64,000 nucleotides of DNA from Candidatus Omnitrophota bacterium. GTDB lineage: Bacteria; Omnitrophota; Gorgyraeia; Gygaellales; Profunditerraquicolaceae. Location of the stretch: the NCBI GenBank assembly GCA_030691865.1, contig JAUYDL010000029.1, positions 4,721 to 68,720 of the forward strand. The letters are read 5' to 3'. Of the stretch, positions 4,331 to 35,355 are shown in pieces. Below the pieces are notes generated by a model. The model ran no database searches and had not been told where the DNA came from. It worked only from the letters and a program-made list of their open reading frames with translations. The translations under genes were made by a program, and so were the position numbers. Position 1 is the first letter of the stretch. Every line of letters starts with the position of its first letter.

Positions 4331-4516
4331 CTAATGTGGTTGCGACTGCTGTCCGTCAAGCCAATCATCAATTTTATCTTTTTTAAAACGCCATTGCCCG
4401 ACCAGCTTTAGCGCAGGTATCTTATTATGCTTTAACCAGTCATAAATAGTCCGACGGGTAACCTTTAAATAATCCGCCAGATCTTCTATAGTCATTAAAT
4501 TACTATTTACCATCAT
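4331..4516 (-). CDS. Small HTH DNA-binding protein of the excisionase/MerR-like HTH_17 family.
   Basis: The 61-aa product carries ...TIEDLADYLKVTRRTIYDWLKHNKIPALKLVGQWRFKKDKIDDW, a typical excisionase-family HTH. It ends 13 nt upstream of the smc start. Confidence 0.6.
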   Translation of the reverse strand: MMVNSNLMTIEDLADYLKVTRRTIYDWLKHNKIPALKLVGQWRFKKDKIDDWLDGQQSQPH

Positions 4517-4723
4517 ACTCTCCGAAAGACCTCCTGAATTTTATGTTTGCATTATAAACAAAAGAATAATTTTTGTCAAGGAGAATCTTTACATTCTTTA
4601 ACATATGGATACAAATAAGTGCAATATAAGGCAGATTCCTGCAAAACATATCATTGAGCAGTGTAGACAGTGTACGTAACCCTATATTCATCAGTTAGTT
4701 CTGTAAGAAATACTATTCTAAAT

Positions 4724-4780
4724 AAAGGGGACGGTTCTATTTTTTGAAACAAAAAATGAGCAAAAAATAGAACCGTCCCC
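4724..4780. repeat. REP/MITE-like palindromic element, copy 1. It probably acts as an intrinsic terminator after etfA.
   Basis: AAAGGGGACGGTTCTATTTTTT-loop-AAAAATAGAACCGTCCCC, with T/A runs on both sides. It abuts the etfA stop at 4789. Confidence 0.8.
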
Positions 4781-6795: not shown

Positions 6796-6829
6796 GGGGA
6801 CGGTTCTCTTAAAAAAGAGAACCGTCCCC
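6796..6829. repeat. REP-like element, copy 2, a short-loop variant lying between bcd and etfB.
   Basis: GGGGACGGTTCTCTTAAAAAAGAGAACCGTCCCC, located inside the bcd-etfBA gene string. Confidence 0.75.
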
Positions 6830-7986: not shown

Positions 7987-8085
7987 CTCTCCTCCTCATT
8001 GTTAAACCCTAAATTCTAAACTCTTCCCGCTAAAGCAGGAAGGGTTTCGAGTTTAGGGTTTAAATTTTAACATATAAATTTGTTT

Positions 8086-10409: not shown

Positions 10410-10457
10410 AAAGGGGACGGTTCTATTTTCCGTATTAAAATAGAACCGTCCCCTTTT
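10410..10457. repeat. REP-like element, copy 3.
   Basis: AAAGGGGACGGTTCTATTTTCCGTATTAAAATAGAACCGTCCCCTTTT, lying between the MFS stop and the marC start. Confidence 0.8.
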
Positions 10458-11615: not shown

Positions 11616-11675
11616 AAAGGGGACGGTTCTATTTTTCCTGCGTCCATTTCTAGAAAAATAGAACCGTCCCCTTTT
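11616..11675. repeat. REP-like element, copy 4. It probably terminates the gap-pgk-tpiA-secG operon.
   Basis: AAAGGGGACGGTTCTATTTTT-CCTGCGTCCATTTCTAG-AAAAATAGAACCGTCCCCTTTT, 9 nt downstream of the secG stop. Confidence 0.8.
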
Positions 11676-11998: not shown

Positions 11999-12762
11999 TT
12001 TACAACCTCGCTGGTTCGAGTAACGATTGCACTAAAACTATCCACCTTTAAGCTTGCCCCGCCCACCAAAGCACCGTCCACATCCGGTTTACCGATTAAC
12101 TCCGCAATATTTTCAGGCTTCACACTTCCGCCATACTGGATTCTAATACTACCGGCCACTTCTTCCCCATACATCTTTCTTAATAAATCACGGATATATT
12201 TATGCACTTCCTGCGCTTGATCGCTAGTAGCAGTCTTACCCGTACCAATTGCCCAAACCGGCTCGTAAGCAATCACAGTTTTGATCATATCTAGAGCGCT
12301 AATATCCGCTAGGCTACCTTGAATATGATTTTGGATAACTTTAAAGGTATTGCCCGATTCTCTTTCCTGCAGATTCTCCCCCACGCAAATAATCGGAGTC
12401 AACCCATGCTTTAAGCAGGCTTTAATTTTTTTATTTACAGTCTCATTAGTATCGCCGAAAAACTGCCTGCGTTCAGAGTGCCCGACAATAACATACTGGC
12501 AACCCGCATCCTTAAGCATAACCGCAGAAACCTCTCCTGTAAAAGCACCCTCATCCTGCCAATAGATATCCTGAGCGCCTATGGTTATATTACTATCTTC
12601 CAAATCATCCGCCAAATACGCCAGTAATGTATAAGCGGGACAAATTACGATATCCACATTTTCTATTTTATAAAGTTCTCTTTTTAAGGCAACCGCTAAT
12701 TCCTGGCCGTCTTTAATCGTTTTGTACATCTTCCAGTTTCCAGCGATAATTAATTTTCTCAT
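11995..12762 (-). CDS. tpiA: Triosephosphate isomerase.
   Basis: MRKLIIAGNWKMYKT...VICPAYT...VIVGHSERR...IAYEPVWAIGTGKTAT. Confidence 0.9.
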   Translation of the reverse strand: MRKLIIAGNWKMYKTIKDGQELAVALKRELYKIENVDIVICPAYTLLAYLADDLEDSNITIGAQDIYWQDEGAFTGEVSAVMLKDAGCQYVIVGHSERRQFFGDTNETVNKKIKACLKHGLTPIICVGENLQERESGNTFKVIQNHIQGSLADISALDMIKTVIAYEPVWAIGTGKTATSDQAQEVHKYIRDLLRKMYGEEVAGSIRIQYGGSVKPENIAELIGKPDVDGALVGGASLKVDSFSAIVTRTSEVVK

Positions 12763-13955
12763 TTGTCCGTAAGCGCGGCAATCCCGGGTAAAGTTTTACC
12801 CTCCAAGAACTCCAGGCTTGCCCCTCCTCCAGTTGAAATATGCGACATCTTATCTTCTAAATTAAATTTAGCAATCGCGGCTGCCGTATCCCCTCCGCCG
12901 ATTATCGAAGTAGCCTTTAGGCCTGAGATAAATTTAGCCACCTCCAGCGTCCCTTTGCTAAAAGCATCCATCTCAAAAATTCCTAAAGGCCCGTTCCAAA
13001 CAATGGTTTTAGCCAAACTTAATTTATCTTCAAATAACTTAATTGTCTTAGGCCCGATATCCACGGCGATTTTACCGGCCGGTATATCAGGACCCACTAT
13101 TTCGGTTTTAGCCGCCGGATCAATATTATCCACCACTACGTGGTCAATAGGTAAAAGAATCGCTTTATTTAATTTTTTAGCTTGCTCTAAAATCGATCTA
13201 GCTAAATCTAGCTTTTCTTTTTCCAGCCGAGAATTGCCAATCTCTATGCCTTGGCTTTTTAGAAAAGTATAGGCCATACCACCGCCGACAATAATCGCAT
13301 CACACTTAGGAAGCAGATTTTGAATAACCCCGATTTTATCCGATACCTTGGCTCCACCTAAAATAACCATAAACGGTTTTTGGGGATTACTAACCGCGCC
13401 ACCTAAATATTTAATCTCTTTCTCTAAAAGAAATCCCGCGGCAGATTTTAAGAAATGCGTAACACCTTCGCAAGAAGCATGCGCCCGATGCGCCGTACCA
13501 AAAGCATCATTAACAAAAATATCCGCCAAGCTAGCTAACTTTTTGGCAAAATTTGCATCATTTGCTTCTTCTTCGGCGTGGAAACGTAAATTCTCCAGCA
13601 AAATTACTTTTTTTTTAGAATTATCGATTTCCTGTTTGATACTATCGCCAACACAATCATTAAGAAATAATACATCCTGCCCGAGCAGCTCTTTTAAACG
13701 CGCGGCTACCGGTTTGAGGCTGTATTTAGCCACCGCTTTGCCATCCGGCCGGCCTAAATGGCTCATAATTACTAATTTTTTGGCCCCCTTCTTTAAAATA
13801 TATTTTAAAGTAGGCACCGTTGAGCGAATGCGCGTGTCATCAGTAATATTAAGGTTGGCATCCTGCGGCACATTAAAATCCGCCCGCACTAATACTGTCT
13901 TGTTTTTTAAATCGATATCTTTTAAGGTTAATTTCGCCATCTCTTCTTCTTCCAC
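12759..13955 (-). CDS. pgk: Phosphoglycerate kinase.
   Basis: VLVRADFNVP... MSHLGRP... AVSNPQKPFMVILGGAKVSDKIGVI... WNGPLGIFE. Confidence 0.9.
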   Translation of the reverse strand: MEEEEMAKLTLKDIDLKNKTVLVRADFNVPQDANLNITDDTRIRSTVPTLKYILKKGAKKLVIMSHLGRPDGKAVAKYSLKPVAARLKELLGQDVLFLNDCVGDSIKQEIDNSKKKVILLENLRFHAEEEANDANFAKKLASLADIFVNDAFGTAHRAHASCEGVTHFLKSAAGFLLEKEIKYLGGAVSNPQKPFMVILGGAKVSDKIGVIQNLLPKCDAIIVGGGMAYTFLKSQGIEIGNSRLEKEKLDLARSILEQAKKLNKAILLPIDHVVVDNIDPAAKTEIVGPDIPAGKIAVDIGPKTIKLFEDKLSLAKTIVWNGPLGIFEMDAFSKGTLEVAKFISGLKATSIIGGGDTAAAIAKFNLEDKMSHISTGGGASLEFLEGKTLPGIAALTDK

Positions 13956-14028
13956 AAGGAGGACACCCGCGCAATACCAATCAGCGCGGGGTGCCTTTCC
14001 GAATATTTAAGCTACAATTGACTAAACC

Positions 14029-19459: not shown

Positions 19460-21304
19460 TTAGATAGGGTCTACATCCACCGTCACTATTATACCTGAAA
19501 AATGCCCTTCTTTTAAGTGTAATTTTAAAAAATGGCTGGCTTTCTCTACGTTAGGCGCGCGCATTAATATCTGATAATAAAAATTCTCCCGCAATTTAGC
19601 CGGTTGCCCGGGATTAAGGGAGAGCATTTTTATACTGCTTGTCTTAATCTTATTTAATTTTTCAAATAAATCACAAGCAGACTGCTTAACCTTTTCCAAA
19701 CTTTCCCCTCTTAATCTAACCAGGATCATATGTTTAAAAGGTGCAAAGTTTAGCTGTTTGCGTTGTTTTAATTCCTCTTTATAAAACAACCTTGAATCAT
19801 TCTTAATCAAAGCCTGAAAGCAATGATGGTTAACATTAGCGCTTTGAATAATTATCGACTTAGATGTTAAACTAACTAACCCCATCAGCAGATTAAAAGT
19901 TTTCTCAGCAGCGCGAAAATCCACCCGGTTAAGCGAATTATCTATCGCCAAAACCCCTATTAAATCAAAATTTATTTCCTGGTGTTTAATTACCGAGCTG
20001 GTAGCAACAAAAATATCCACATTCATACGCGCCTGTGGGAAAATTCTCGCCAGTTCGCTTTCTACCTTTTCTGTGCCGATACCTGAATATTTAATATAAC
20101 CGGCATTACAATGTGGACAGATTTTAGGCACCGGCATTTTAAAATTGCAATGATGACATTTTAATTTATCATCATCAAAATGAAATACCAGATTAATATT
20201 GCAGCGCGGACATTTCAAAGCCACCTGGCAATTATGACAAGCAACCGTGGTAGCAAAACCTTTGCGATTAATCACCAATAAGACCTTACCTTTTTCAGCC
20301 AGGGCCATCTGTATCGCATCCAGCAAAAACTTTGAAAACATGGATTTGTTTTTTCTTTCCGCATAAGCCAGCCGGCGCACATCGATAACCTTAACAAGCG
20401 GGTAAGCCAGTTTTGAAGGAATAACTTCAAGATCCAGTTTACCTTTTTGCAACAGATAAAAACTTTCCAAAGATAAACAATGACTGCCCAGAATAACTCC
20501 TGAACCCTGAATCTGTGCGCGCATCAATCCAACTTCCCGGGCATGATAATGCGGAACCTGCTCCTGCTTATAAACCTGATCCTCTTCTTGGTCGATAATC
20601 ATCAACCCCAGATTATTCACGCAAGAGAAAATACTTGAGCGCGTACCGGCCACCACGCAGTAATCTGCTTGTCTGATTTTTTCCCAAATCTCCAGTTCAT
20701 TAGGCTGTTTGCGGAAGGAGATAAAAACTTCTTTCCCCAAACTCTTCTCCAATTTCTCTTTTACCCTTTCCACTGCTGCGATATTACTGCACAGAATAAT
20801 TACCGACTTTTTAGCCGCCAGAACTTTCTTAATCTCCCTTAGGTAAACCGGTATTCGGTCAAACCCCTGAACAAAAAGGGGACGTTTCCCTTTCTCAAGA
20901 GAAAGGGGACGGTTCTCTTTTTCTGAAACCTTATTAAGAGAACCGTCCCCCTGATTTAAGTCTTTCCCCTTCCTCAACTCATCCGGTAACGCCGCTTCAA
21001 TTGCCTCTCCCCAGGAACAACAATAATATTCCGCCAGCTCCTTAGTCAACTGAAGCATCGAATCATCCAAGATCGGGAATAAATCAATAACCGAGATAAT
21101 CTCTTTTAATTTTTTGATTTTAGTTTTATTATTTAATTCTACTACGTAGGCAACTTCTTTTTTGTTGCGGAAATTTACCCAAACTCTTGCTCCAATGTTA
21201 ACTTTGGCTTCCAGGCCCACCGGAACAAGGTAATCAAACGGGCCATCAATCGGCAGGCCCAACACCACATTAGCGTATAACACTAGCCAACTCCTTACAA
21301 GCAA
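19460..21304 (-). CDS. priA: Primosomal protein N' (PriA) homolog with degenerate helicase motifs and an in-frame REP-derived insertion.
   Basis: The N-terminal domain (GLPIDGPFDYLVP) and the Cys4 zinc fingers (CHNCQVALKCPRC... CHHCNFKMPVPKICPHC) match PriA. Where GVTGSGKTEVYL is expected it reads GFDRIPVYL. DEEH is replaced by DQEE, SAT by SHC, and QVAGRAGR by GLVSLTSK. Confidence 0.8.
   Translation of the reverse strand: MLVRSWLVLYANVVLGLPIDGPFDYLVPVGLEAKVNIGARVWVNFRNKKEVAYVVELNNKTKIKKLKEIISVIDLFPILDDSMLQLTKELAEYYCCSWGEAIEAALPDELRKGKDLNQGDGSLNKVSEKENRPLSLEKGKRPLFVQGFDRIPVYLREIKKVLAAKKSVIILCSNIAAVERVKEKLEKSLGKEVFISFRKQPNELEIWEKIRQADYCVVAGTRSSIFSCVNNLGLMIIDQEEDQVYKQEQVPHYHAREVGLMRAQIQGSGVILGSHCLSLESFYLLQKGKLDLEVIPSKLAYPLVKVIDVRRLAYAERKNKSMFSKFLLDAIQMALAEKGKVLLVINRKGFATTVACHNCQVALKCPRCNINLVFHFDDDKLKCHHCNFKMPVPKICPHCNAGYIKYSGIGTEKVESELARIFPQARMNVDIFVATSSVIKHQEINFDLIGVLAIDNSLNRVDFRAAEKTFNLLMGLVSLTSKSIIIQSANVNHHCFQALIKNDSRLFYKEELKQRKQLNFAPFKHMILVRLRGESLEKVKQSACDLFEKLNKIKTSSIKMLSLNPGQPAKLRENFYYQILMRAPNVEKASHFLKLHLKEGHFSGIIVTVDVDPI
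20875..20951. repeat. REP-like element, copy 5, inserted in-frame inside priA.
   Basis: GGGGACGTTTCCCTTTCTCAAGAGAAAGGGGACGGTTCTCTTTTTCTGAAACCTTATTAAGAGAACCGTCCCCC. It encodes ...GDGSLNKVSEKENRPLSLEKGKRPL..., which is absent from canonical PriA. Confidence 0.7.
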
Positions 21305-22380: not shown

Positions 22381-22435
22381 AAAGGGGACGGTTCTATTTT
22401 TACCGAGTCGAGTTCTAGAAAAATAGAACCGTCCC
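22381..22435. repeat. REP-like element, copy 6.
   Basis: AAAGGGGACGGTTCTATTTTTACCGAGTCGAGTTCTAGAAAAATAGAACCGTCCCC. Confidence 0.8.
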
Positions 22436-22438
22436 CAT

Positions 22439-22981
22439 TTATTTTTTAATCAGAAATTCCGCTGCTGCCAGGAGATCTTTAAACACAAAATCCGGCTTTG
22501 CTTCCCAGTTCTTTTGATTAGATAATTTCTCTTTGCCGGAAAGAATAAGAACGGATTTAGCGCCCACGGCATGAGCAGTCAGCACATCGCGTATAGTGTC
22601 ACCCACAAAATATGCTTCTTTTAGGTTAACCTTAAATTCCCGCGCGGCTTTCTTAAGCAAACCCGGTTTGGGCTTGCGGCAGCTACAGCATGCCTCTTTG
22701 CGATGCGTACAATAATAAACTTTAGTAATTTTGCCGCCTGCTTGCTCAATATCCTCAAGCATCTTAGTAGTTATGCTATCTAAGGTCTTTTGAGCGTAAG
22801 CCCCTTTACCTACTCCTGCCTGATTGGAAGCCACAAAAATTTTATACCCTGCCTTACTCAACAATGCAATTGCTTGCTTTGCACGCGGCAGAAACCTAAA
22901 CTTCCTGAGCGAAGTTACATACAATCTATCGCCAGGATATTTGTTTATTACACCGTCTCTATCTAGAAACACAATCTTCAT
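22439..22981 (-). CDS. gmhB: D-glycero-D-manno-heptose 1,7-bisphosphate phosphatase (HAD-IIIA).
   Basis: MKIVFLDRDGVIN... and CxCRKPKPGLL, with the HAD motifs. Confidence 0.75.
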   Translation of the reverse strand: MKIVFLDRDGVINKYPGDRLYVTSLRKFRFLPRAKQAIALLSKAGYKIFVASNQAGVGKGAYAQKTLDSITTKMLEDIEQAGGKITKVYYCTHRKEACCSCRKPKPGLLKKAAREFKVNLKEAYFVGDTIRDVLTAHAVGAKSVLILSGKEKLSNQKNWEAKPDFVFKDLLAAAEFLIKK

Positions 22982-23841: not shown

Positions 23842-23895
23842 GGGGACGGTTCTATTTTTCTAGAACTCATTTGCGGAAAAAATAGAACCGTCCCC
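23842..23895. repeat. REP-like element, copy 7, with its loop in inverted orientation.
   Basis: GGGGACGGTTCTATTTTTCTAGAACTCATTTGCGGAAAAAATAGAACCGTCCCC. The loop is the reverse complement of the loop in copies 4, 6 and 8. Confidence 0.8.
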
Positions 23896-25033: not shown

Positions 25034-25090
25034 AAAAGGGGACGGTTCTATTTTTCCCGAGTCCAGTTCTAGAAAAATAGAACCGTCCCC
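25034..25090. repeat. REP-like element, copy 8.
   Basis: AAAAGGGGACGGTTCTATTTTTCCCGAGTCCAGTTCTAGAAAAATAGAACCGTCCCC. Confidence 0.8.
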
Positions 25091-27163: not shown

Positions 27164-27205
27164 GTTAACCAACAATGTATATAATAATATATATTGTTGG
27201 TTAAC
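27164..27205. promoter_or_regulatory. Perfect 13-bp inverted repeat flanking an AT-rich promoter-like core; a putative autoregulatory operator.
   Basis: GTTAACCAACAAT-gtatataataatatat-ATTGTTGGTTAAC, lying 5 nt upstream of the ORF start at 27159. Confidence 0.45.
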
Positions 27206-33750: not shown

Positions 33751-35355
33751 CTATATTATTCTTTCTTTAATCCTGCAAAGTACTTCCTCAACGCTTATAT
33801 CCTCTAAATTACTCTTCTCTATAACTATATGCCCCTCTCCCCACGGTCCCCAGCGTTGCGCGGTTTTACCCGGCAAATCATTCCTGAACAACGCTATCAC
33901 CGGAGTCCCCACAGAGGCAGCCAAATGCATCGGCCCGCTATCCCCTGAAACAACTAAACTGCCACGTTTCAATAATGCCGCTAATTCCACTAAACTTGTC
34001 TTATTAATCAAATCTATAGTCCCTAAGGGGACTGTCCCCAAAGGGGACTGTCCCCGATCTTCAACTCTTCCCACAAGCACAACCTTCACTTTCATCTCCT
34101 GTATAATTCTCTGCGCTAATTCGCCAAACCGCTCAATTGGCCACTGTTTAACCGGATCACTGGTAAAAGGATGGATGATTACAATTTTTTGATTAATAAA
34201 ATATTTATATAAATTATCATTTACTTTAATCGCTAGTGACAAATCCTGCGTTTTTGCCCCCAGCAACCCTACCAACTCCAAATTACAATCTACCTCATGC
34301 CGGCTACCTTGATGCTTGGTATCTTTTAATTTATGGGTAAGCAAAAACCCCCATTTCCTATCATAACCCACACGCACAGGGATGCCCGCTAAAAAAATAC
34401 TCTGATGTGCTTCTTTAGTAGGATTTAGGACAACACAGAGATCAAACCTGTGCTTCCTTAATCCTTTCCTGATTTGGTCCCAAACTACTACCTGATCAAC
34501 ACATTCCACCGCAGTCGCCAACTCACTAACTGTAGAATTTACCGCTAAAGTAAGCTCTGCCTGCGGATATCTCTCTTTCAACGCCCGAATAGCCGGAATA
34601 TTCAACAAAAACTCTCCAAACCGGTCATTACGTATGACGAGTATTCTCTTGATCATGGAACACCCCACGGGCAAGCCCGTGGTACCTAAATTTACCCCCT
34701 GACGTATAATAGCTTGCCCATCCAGTGACATCCCCCGAAGCAGTTCTTTCTTCGCATTCATCTGCGAAGGGGGATAGAAAATAGGCACTTCCATTACGCG
34801 CATTTTTTTTCTTAAGGCTTTAGTTAAAATCTCAAACGCAGTATCCGCGCCTTTTAATTCCGGCGCTAAATTTAAAAAACTTTCCCTGCGCATAAGCTGA
34901 CAATGCGTAAACCAGTCATACAACTTAACACCAAATAGAATATTTAATATCAGGGTTGAGAAATAATTTTTAACTTTCGCCAACCCCGAGGTCCCTTGAT
35001 GCATTTTGCTAAAACGTGCACCCAGAACGATATCCGCCCCTGAATCCTTGATCGCCCCCAAAAGCTTAAGATAATTACCAGGGTCATACCTTAAGTCCCC
35101 ATTCTGGATGAGAATAAATTCACCGGTGGCATTCTGTAACCCCGTGCGCACCGCAGCCGCCTTTCCGCGATTACTGACATGGTGGATAACCTTTAAGCTA
35201 TTAAGAGAAAGCCCCCTTAAGATTAACTCAGTATTATCCTTAGAGCAATCGTTAACCACGATAATCTCTTTCTCAACAGAAAGATTGCTAACCTTATTGA
35301 TTACTGCTTCAATAGTTTTCTCTTGATTATAAACCGGCAAAATTACAGAAATCAT
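33751..35355 (-). CDS. Bifunctional fusion of a GT2 glycosyltransferase (N-terminus) and a GT9 heptosyltransferase (C-terminus).
   Basis: The N-terminus reads MISVILPVYNQEKTIEAVINKV...IIVVNDCSKDNT (GT2). From about residue 235 it reads ILVIRNDRFGEFLLNIPAIRALKERYP... (GT9, RfaF/WaaC-like). Confidence 0.7.
   Translation of the reverse strand: MISVILPVYNQEKTIEAVINKVSNLSVEKEIIVVNDCSKDNTELILRGLSLNSLKVIHHVSNRGKAAAVRTGLQNATGEFILIQNGDLRYDPGNYLKLLGAIKDSGADIVLGARFSKMHQGTSGLAKVKNYFSTLILNILFGVKLYDWFTHCQLMRRESFLNLAPELKGADTAFEILTKALRKKMRVMEVPIFYPPSQMNAKKELLRGMSLDGQAIIRQGVNLGTTGLPVGCSMIKRILVIRNDRFGEFLLNIPAIRALKERYPQAELTLAVNSTVSELATAVECVDQVVVWDQIRKGLRKHRFDLCVVLNPTKEAHQSIFLAGIPVRVGYDRKWGFLLTHKLKDTKHQGSRHEVDCNLELVGLLGAKTQDLSLAIKVNDNLYKYFINQKIVIIHPFTSDPVKQWPIERFGELAQRIIQEMKVKVVLVGRVEDRGQSPLGTVPLGTIDLINKTSLVELAALLKRGSLVVSGDSGPMHLAASVGTPVIALFRNDLPGKTAQRWGPWGEGHIVIEKSNLEDISVEEVLCRIKERII
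34027..34055. repeat. In-frame tandem copies of the palindrome GGGGACTGTCCCC, which look like collapsed REP cores.
   Basis: GGGGACTGTCCCCAAAGGGGACTGTCCCC encodes GTVPLGTVPLG inside the GT2-GT9 fusion. Confidence 0.5.

Follow-up and report, generated by a model that had tools for sequence, protein, structure and literature searches.

How does a dispersed, terminator-like palindrome come to be translated inside a housekeeping gene, and what does its presence there mean for that gene? The question is raised by a repeat copy within priA of a Candidatus Omnitrophota bacterium, on contig JAUYDL010000029.1 of assembly GCA_030691865.1. The stretch analysed, referred to here as the window, comprises 64,000 nt (positions 4,721 to 68,720 of the contig), and coordinates are those of the window unless a relative is named by its locus number. 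The priA open reading frame (ORF) occupies 19460-21304 on the minus strand. We argue that the copy is probably a selfish terminator-like repeat that is tolerated in a permissive linker of PriA.

A dispersed repeat is translated within priA

A search of the whole window with the arm GGGGACGGTTCTCTT, in which up to two mismatches were allowed and shuffled sequence served as the control, gave 17 matches against 0.04 expected from the shuffles. The matches form eight inverted pairs and one lone extra arm. One of the pairs (20905-20919 and 20936-20950) lies within priA on the minus strand, where it makes a complete copy of the repeat at 20905-20950 with the arms GGGGACGGTTCTCTT and AAGAGAACCGTCCCC, complementary at 15 of 15 positions and separated by a 16-nt loop. 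The extra arm, at 20878-20892 and likewise on the minus strand, is decayed, with two mismatches (GGGGACGTTTCCCTT on the plus strand); seen from the mRNA, it forms a second right arm, after which comes UUUUUGUU; it is read as the peptide KGKRPL and is still intact in a close relative (L049). The priA copy carries the CTCTT arm variant, with a C·G pair at arm position 13, as does the intergenic copy at 6796-6829, the other six copies being of the TATT variant. The first-pass annotation had described a dispersed genome repeat and a decayed half copy in the priA ORF and had proposed a comparison with intergenic copies; the arm pairs bear out the description, and the shared CTCTT arm supplies the match.

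The ORF stays open straight through the repeat, which, as had been claimed, is translated in frame. The peptide GDGSLNKVSEKENRPLSLEKGKRPL forms residues 119-143 (20876-20950) and ends three residues before G147 of GFDRIPVY; the complete copy at 20905-20950 is read as part of GDGSLNKVSEKENRP. In this frame the right arm reads GAG AAC CGT CCC (ENRP), where the TATT variant would give TAG AAC CGT CCC. Predictions of mRNA structure and of protein disorder had also been suggested. In the mRNA sense the repeat region is predicted to fold with -44.3 kcal/mol (z = -3.4), and the AlphaFold per-residue confidence (pLDDT) is below 50 for residues 118-139 (20888-20953), while the neighbouring 3′-DNA-binding domain (3′BD, residues 10-111) and the first strand of the core, from residues 143-146 onward, are modelled confidently. 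The U-tract of this copy is poor (UUUCUCUU).

The repeat is a palindrome of 34-70 nt. Its foot, GGGGAC...GTCCCC, is rich in G+C and as a rule has an A-tract on one side and a T-tract on the other. Its family consensus is GGGGACGGTTCT[A/C]TT...AA[T/G]AGAACCGTCCCC, and seven intergenic copies are present in the window. These are laid out as AAATAAAA-GGGGACGGTTCTATTTTT-loop-AAAAATAGAACCGTCCCC-TTTTATTT and lie within a few bases of the stop codon of the upstream gene, a symmetric, terminator-like design that suggests, from the sequence, a role in ending transcription. The standard terminator scan accepts loops of 3-8 nt only and is hence blind to these repeats, so that it was not used as evidence. 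An Rfam search with the repeat gave nothing at the gathering threshold, only generic hairpin matches below it.

The repeat fills the tether of an unusual PriA

The host protein is clearly PriA. A Candidatus Omnitrophota metagenome-assembled genome contains the identical protein, annotated there as primosomal protein N′ with 607 residues against the 614 counted here from the TTG start. It matches the Pfam families for 3′BD (PF17764), PF18319 and PF18074, the Cys-rich zinc ribbon and the C-terminal domain among them, and scores above the cut-off for TIGR00595. Aligned with Klebsiella pneumoniae PriA, residues 9-115 correspond to 18-124 and residues from 146 onward to those from 241 onward, while about 30 residues (116-145) replace residues 125-240 of the K. 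pneumoniae protein. The winged-helix domain is therefore absent, some 115 residues being missing, and the AlphaFold model (pTM 0.76) contains no folded element in its place. The model matches PriA structures (Foldseek to 8fak, E = 2e-46, TM 0.77); its second-best structural match is 6dcr, an E. coli PriA from which the winged helix was deleted by engineering and in which the 3′BD is joined directly to the core, as in the Omnitrophota protein.

The helicase motifs are degenerate. The counterpart of Walker A is GFDRIPV (20846-20866, minus strand), which aligns with GSGKTEV(Y) of K. pneumoniae PriA, with GFDRI in place of the canonical GSGKT; the Walker-B or DEAH box DEEH is replaced by DQEE in the same alignment (20582-20593, minus strand), motif III GSATP by GSHCL, and motif VI GRAGRAGK by GLVSLTSK. 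The degenerate motifs are conserved in 120 Omnitrophota orthologs of 68-83% identity, with the Walker-A site kept as QGxDRxPVYL. The earlier placement of the repeat immediately upstream of Walker A was thus right as to position, although the motif itself is no longer a Walker A. From these sequences it is likely that the protein is a pseudohelicase with an ATPase-dead, helicase-like core. There is a precedent in the PriA pseudohelicase of Deinococcus radiodurans (PMC4504706), which likewise has degenerate helicase motifs, the Omnitrophota protein being known from sequence and model.

The repeat lies in the inter-domain tether, K114-Q146, a run of 33 codons (20867-20965, minus strand) between the conserved LRKG and G147; the G113-G147 stretch is 99 nt in the window. 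Given the low model confidence, the tether is probably disordered. The stretch from LRKG to (L)FVQGxDRxPVYL is the only hypervariable one in these proteins, and it is bordered by conserved codons that are A-rich on one side (LRKGK, AGAAAAGGNAAA) and T-rich on the other (LFVQG, CTTTTTGTTCAGGG), resembling the A-tract and T-tract of the element. In relatives the A-tract is read as Lys-Lys and the T-tract as Phe-Phe or Leu-Phe, and these merge with the basic RKGK tail and the hydrophobic LFV strand.

The same tether holds repeats across the phylum

The survey of orthologs took in priA loci from genomes (47) and from metagenomes (80). Without redundancy these come to 106 loci and 1.39 Mb, with 10-20 kb sampled per genome. 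Tethers were extracted with tblastn anchors, as an earlier extraction by regular expression had missed divergent and split genes. A hairpin was scored as intact at a stem score of at least 13, and orphan arms were counted by exact 12-mers, since counts with one mismatch were swamped by chance matches.

Intact hairpins are present in 23 of the 106 tethers (z down to -12). Outside the deepest clade, at least 60 of 86 tethers are repeat-derived, and 42 of the 86 match 12-mers of intergenic repeat arms, compared with 8% of control segments from the same genes. Of the 20 tethers of the deepest clade (motif ...LIHDLDGxxRW), none is repeat-derived and none has such a match. The arms are of at least 12 variants, which include GGGGACGGTTCT, GGGACCGTTTCT, GGGGACGTTTCT, GGGACAGCGACC, GGGGACGCTC and GGGGACAGTTC, further GGGGACACTTCT, GGGAACGGTTCT, GGGGAACGTCCCC, GGGGTCAGA and GGGGAGATATCTC, and ATAGATCCGACCCC, which occurs as a right arm only. 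All three frames are used (GDGS...ENRP; RGRFCFF; GTVSIF...KIETVP and ...KIEPSP), as are both loop orientations. The GGGGTCAG-type element, which is open in only one frame per strand, is for that reason always read as KKWGQIYFS...KINLTPFF. A palindrome of this type is also translated in an unrelated ORF of 75 residues, found in a protein search with a 44-residue doublet of the repeat peptide; that search gave two candidates and missed PriA proteins known to carry the peptide, so that it is uninformative on whether the type is specific to tethers.

In nine loci (the window, L010, L018, L028, L037, L049, L059, L070 and L074) the variant in the tether is also one found in the intergenic DNA of the same locus, and in L074 the two copies are identical at 64 of 65 nt, the loop included. 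A hairpin nearly identical to that of the window, again including the loop, is present in L055, which belongs to a different PriA clade. The suggestion that the segment might be lineage-specific is accordingly not upheld. Decay is visible as orphan right arms in L001 and L017 and as right arms that are present two- or threefold in L018, L049, L064, L072 and L079.

Tethers have a median length of 84 nt (about 28 residues) in the deep clade, which has no repeats; in the crown the medians are 85.5 nt with an intact hairpin and 87 nt without one. Tethers being equally long with and without repeats, the repeat replaces a tether of constrained length and adds no residues; the "26 extra residues" of the first-pass annotation are therefore incorrect.

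A second repeat family, GAGATTGC...CTCGCAATGACG, unrelated to the GGGGAC family, occupies ten further tethers (L003, L004, L006, L009, L016, L020, L054, L056, L063 and L077) and 77 sites outside tethers, for example at 345 and 1522 in L003 and at 1639, 1841, 3467 and 12812 in L006. In the form GAGATTGCTTCG...CTCGCAATGACG, the second repeat encodes the peptides ..PRNDG and ..SLAMT.. and is found both between genes and in the PriA tether.

An assembly artefact was considered and rejected, since in-frame sequence of this kind is found in more than 70 independent assemblies and the split junctions described below recur in independent samples.

Split priA genes

In seven non-redundant loci with five junction sequences (L032/L089, L033, L036, L088, L093 and L100), priA is split at the same spot. 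The earlier statement that these elements can invade coding sequence without destroying the ORF is thus correct for the window and fails in these relatives. The 3′BD frame stops a few codons after LRKGK; the remainder of PriA is read in frame -1, beginning at a start codon that overlaps the stop or lies close to it. This start is GTGA, ATGA or an ATG 11 nt before TAG, with AAGGAG or AAGGGG ahead of it. The two halves are each an intact ORF, a 3′BD cistron of about 108 residues and a core cistron of about 480 (e.g. L088, 10022-11775). A neighbour-joining tree places the split genes at four or more points within groups of fused ones. On this ground, and because the deepest clade is fused and repeat-free, we set aside as the main reading the idea that priA was originally two genes with a terminator between them and was fused later.

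By eye, the junctions of L036, L088 and L100 (AAAAAGTGAAC/AAAAAGTGAAACC) match the inner right arm AAAAAGAGAACCG, altered so as to give GTGA, and that of L033 (ATAATGAAACGTC) resembles the arm ATAGAAACGTC. The starts at these junctions may thus descend from a decayed repeat arm, and the conserved RKG codons (AGAAAGGGG) resemble a Shine-Dalgarno site. The sequence G AAA AAG TGA at the junctions of L036, L088 and L100, with the second frame at -1, is like a dnaX-type slippery site before a stop. A -1 frameshift may still give a fused protein in these three.

Intergenic copies and other invaded sites

The intergenic copies of the window lie at 4727-4780, 10413-10453 and 11619-11671 (all TATT, the last with A-tract and T-tract flanks), at 6796-6829 (CTCTT, with a 4-nt loop), at 22384-22436, where the stop codon of the gene at 22439-22981 falls within the ATTTATTT flank, at 23842-23895, where the loop is in the opposite orientation, and at 25038-25090, which has the common family loop TAGAACTGGACTCGG in the gene sense. 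Intergenic copies from six species share this loop, which each time runs in the sense of the genes (the window at 22384-22436, 25038-25090 and 11619-11671; L007, L008, L018, L049 and L059). Its recurrence across species indicates that the copied unit is the whole element of 50-65 nt and not the motif alone, and its single orientation relative to genes suggests that either its function or the way in which it is copied depends on the strand. By eye no direct target-site duplication, such as would mark a miniature inverted-repeat transposable element (MITE), was recognised; the whole element is one hairpin, and its flanks are inverted A/T tracts.

All eight long copies of the window are in its first 25 kb, and the 38-kb run of polysaccharide biosynthesis genes beyond them contains none but the mini-palindromes at 34027-34055. 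All ORFs of at least 200 residues are on the minus strand, except that at 13348-14010, which overlaps a larger minus-strand ORF (12759-13955).

In the 1.39 Mb of the survey, 130 strong hairpins with loops of 3-45 nt were found: 100 between genes or at contig edges, 23 in tethers (about 9 kb) and seven in other stop-to-stop ORFs. Five of these seven are upstream of the real start, one is elsewhere in PriA (L041) and one is in a heptosyltransferase. The former is a palindrome with 14-nt arms (ACCCCGTTAGAGAA...), in frame within the central part of a PriA from the deep clade (4445-4491), and an in-frame GGGGACAGTCCCC pair lies in a heptosyltransferase-like ORF of 330 residues in L012 (2290-2330). 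The scan for strong hairpins missed mini-palindromes. In the GT2/GT9 glycosyltransferase gene at 33751-35355 (minus strand), two in-frame 13-nt units GGGGACAGTCCCC (34027-34039 and 34043-34055) read DRGQSPLGTVPLG, and the same mini-palindromes are present at the same place in glycosyltransferase genes of L001, L010, L012, L049 and L100. A second loop of PriA, after residue 429, contains the right arm GGAAAATAGATCCGACCCCAATTT, read as EENRSDPNL, in L007 (~9420), L069 (~11341), L072 and L073; the window protein has no insert there. priA is thus the main invaded gene seen and not the sole one, and the invasion of other genes and of other PriA loops argues against a function specific to priA.

Other palindromes were noted in the same DNA. 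In the window, unrelated ones lie at 27164-27205 (GTTAACCAACAATGTATAT-aata-ATATATATTGTTGGTTAAC, strong) and at 8002-8063 (29-nt arms). A palindrome GTATAGTTAGTTAACA...TGTTAACTAACTATAC, which may be operator-like, recurs in two relatives (L007, 732-768; L012, 2623-2659). GTAG palindromes (GTAGACCTACGCGGTCTACA...; CAGTAGGGGAGGT...) occur beside the GGGGAC family in L037 (3466-3510 and 10118-10160) and L010 (12817-12847 and 18332-18364); these are a different family and may be classical GTAG-type repetitive extragenic palindromes (REPs).

Origin and maintenance of the tether repeats

A selfish repeat in a permissive tether would act as follows. What counts in the tether would be its approximate length and not its exact sequence, the two homopolymer-like tracts of the element (A and T) would code for residues that fit the A-rich and T-rich conserved flanks, and only stop-free combinations of variant and frame would survive. 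Coding compatibility and a tolerant tether would together account for the frequent occupation of the site. The same tether has been filled repeatedly across the phylum by different repeat variants, and resident repeats then decay through deletion and duplication of arms. In several lineages a repeat would have mutated to a stop with an overlapping GTG or ATG start, placed after the Shine-Dalgarno-like RKG codons, so that priA was split. Movement may have been by transposition, gene conversion or template switching; the residence of the repeats would be neutral, and the protein would presumably work with any tether.

Several observations weigh against this interpretation. The hairpin part is 96-97% identical between orthologs whose flanking priA DNA is 65-74% identical (the window and L055; L007 and L022, L078), changes in the arms are fully compensated, with five such base pairs and none broken in the core stem, and both the loop type of the window and L055 and the GGGGTCAG type occur, in the DNA sampled, only in tethers and never between genes. 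Hairpin conservation, compensation and tether-only variants could reflect selection on the hairpin and not neutrality. Moreover, no ortholog with an empty site was found adjoining a filled one, so that a discrete insertion is not demonstrated for the window copy, and there is no transposase, such as the RAYT (an IS200/IS605-type tyrosine transposase) that goes with REPs in the strict sense, among the 25 commonest of the 80 Pfam families listed for the 54 ORFs of the one 64-kb window. On the other side, intergenic copies are equally conserved across species, and L037 has an intergenic copy with the CTCTT arm whose loop is visibly similar by eye. Perfect arms can also be maintained by quasi-palindrome template switching, an established mechanism.

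The PriA tether might be a long-lived, self-renewing landing pad, in which the A-rich RKGK and T-rich LFV codons mimic the flanks of the repeat, so that further copies continue to arrive there, and the resident hairpin both terminates transcription and drives fission; we consider this unlikely. If it were so, the hairpin would be a translation-sensitive intragenic terminator over the helicase-like part and fmt, the methionyl-tRNA formyltransferase gene, and would repeatedly supply the stop, the start and the Shine-Dalgarno context, so that selfish repeats would be driving gene fission at the level of domains.

Also unlikely, in our judgement, is that the hairpin is a selected cis-element of priA itself, a translation-sensitive intragenic terminator or pause made of a strong stem and a U-rich tail. 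Such an element would tune the mRNA of full-length priA and downstream fmt, or the ratio of a 3′BD fragment to the full protein, and gene fission would be another means to the same end. The conservation, the five compensated pairs and the two tether-only variants would all follow, and very strong stems with perfect U-tracts are present within the ORF of many orthologs (L007, L014, L015, L022 and L037). The density of intact hairpins also fits, with 23 in the roughly 9 kb of tethers compared with 107 in 1.37 Mb of other DNA. In the count of arms by exact 12-mers, intact fractions in tethers and in intergenic DNA are not cleanly comparable, as mini-palindromes and other families are mixed in. 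The gene arrangement cuts both ways. priA overlaps the end of a gene for a glycosyltransferase like monogalactosyldiacylglycerol synthase, and fmt starts one base after the priA stop, so that a terminator there would be polar; polarity on fmt would be costly, the gene being generally important for translation initiation. Most orthologs have a decayed hairpin or none, and the deep clade has none at all; the repeats vary in type, frame and orientation, the same site is also used by a family of unrelated sequence, the U-tract of the window copy is poor, like palindromes are in frame in other proteins, and the conservation between species extends to intergenic copies.

A single ancient insertion, inherited vertically and kept family-like by gene conversion or quasi-palindrome template switching, seems to us more doubtful again. 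It would explain why the right arm and T-run abut the same GTTCAGGG position in many orthologs, why L007, L022 and L078 have the same left junction and frame, why arms stay perfect while loops drift, and why tether variants track the intergenic variant of their own genome in nine loci. It does not readily explain two different arm variants in tandem in the L001 tether, the unrelated family at the same site, the reversed loop orientation in L010 and L012 or the scatter of variants across the neighbour-joining tree; the near-identical pair in L074 fits conversion and fresh copying alike.

That the motif merely piles up in any tolerant sequence, as a DNA-uptake-type signal or through another process of mutation plus drive, is very improbable: the uptake sequences of Neisseria (DUS) and Haemophilus (USS) do form terminator-like inverted pairs and stand in frame in poorly conserved protein segments, and here short GGGGAC...GTCCCC feet recur as mini-palindromes inside genes and inverted pairs are placed after stop codons, but whole units of 50-65 nt are copied, loops included, and the inner parts of the arms vary from genome to genome by compensated changes, as a fixed uptake motif would not.

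Relation to known repeats and significance

The repeat translated in a PriA linker adds a further case to a kind already known. Rickettsia palindromic elements (RPEs; Ogata et al. 2000, 2002, summarised in PMC10969869) lie in frame in housekeeping genes, where they encode extra or linker peptides compatible with the fold, and also between genes. The Omnitrophota element is like them in its in-frame copy within a coding gene, encoding residues 119-143, and in the same type of peptide in other species. The RPEs are longer (about 100-150 bp against 34-70 nt), are confined to Rickettsia, are by description unrelated in sequence and are not described as terminator mimics with A-tract, hairpin and T-tract (PMC10969869); nor are there reports of RPEs splitting their host gene or returning to a single orthologous site throughout a phylum.

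The label REP, used in the first-pass annotation, is apt in that the repeat is palindromic, dispersed and mostly extragenic. Seven of the eight copies in the first 25 kb are intergenic and abut stop codons, and 100 of the 130 strong palindromes in relatives are intergenic. The label does not hold for the GTAG tag: the arms begin GGGGACGG and end CCGTCCCC, with no GTAG at either end. The right arm does contain CGTC (AACCGTCCCC), at a distance of 4 nt from the end of the stem, with CCC(C) following it within the stem. Intragenic copies of GTAG- and CGTC-tagged REPs, as presented in the passages covered of Di Nocera et al. 2013 (PMC3733652), encode 20-30 residues, probably as flexible loops or linkers, the REPs otherwise lying mostly downstream of ORFs; they are strikingly frequent in replication and repair genes (uvrABCD, recBCD, polA and dnaE2). 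priA is absent from the main text of that paper, and its passages covered here do not mention Omnitrophota, nor do they describe gene fission or a single site that is occupied again and again in about 60 lineages at species level. The same source describes TIRYT genes, for IS200/IS605-like tyrosine transposases, flanked by TIR repeats with the motif GGGGWSAS. This motif fits tether and intergenic variants that start GGGGACAG, GGGGTCAG or GGGGACAC and does not fit the GGGGACGG of the window, and from this likeness in sequence we take it as a lead to a mobilising enzyme and not as a result.

A terminator-like design is also found in a Streptococcus pneumoniae repeat, SPRITE, which is not known to have intragenic translated copies. 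SPRITE (named in PMC10969869) is a repeated hairpin with a T-run after genes, likely a terminator mimic, of other sequence.

What the Omnitrophota repeats add to the known cases is recurrence at one domain boundary across a phylum, together with fissions that would derive from the repeats. The short list of palindromic repeats translated in housekeeping genes thereby gains an uncultured phylum and, with priA, a further host gene, and the priA case agrees with the tendency, so far without explanation, of such insertions to fall in proteins of replication and repair. The roughly 100 orthologs span a fresh copy, a decayed arm, tandem arms and a split gene, and so provide a natural time series of linker creation and of breakage at a domain boundary. 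A PriA lineage that has neither the winged helix nor the ATPase motifs, and in which the gene is split in seven of 106 loci, informs which parts of the protein replication restart needs.

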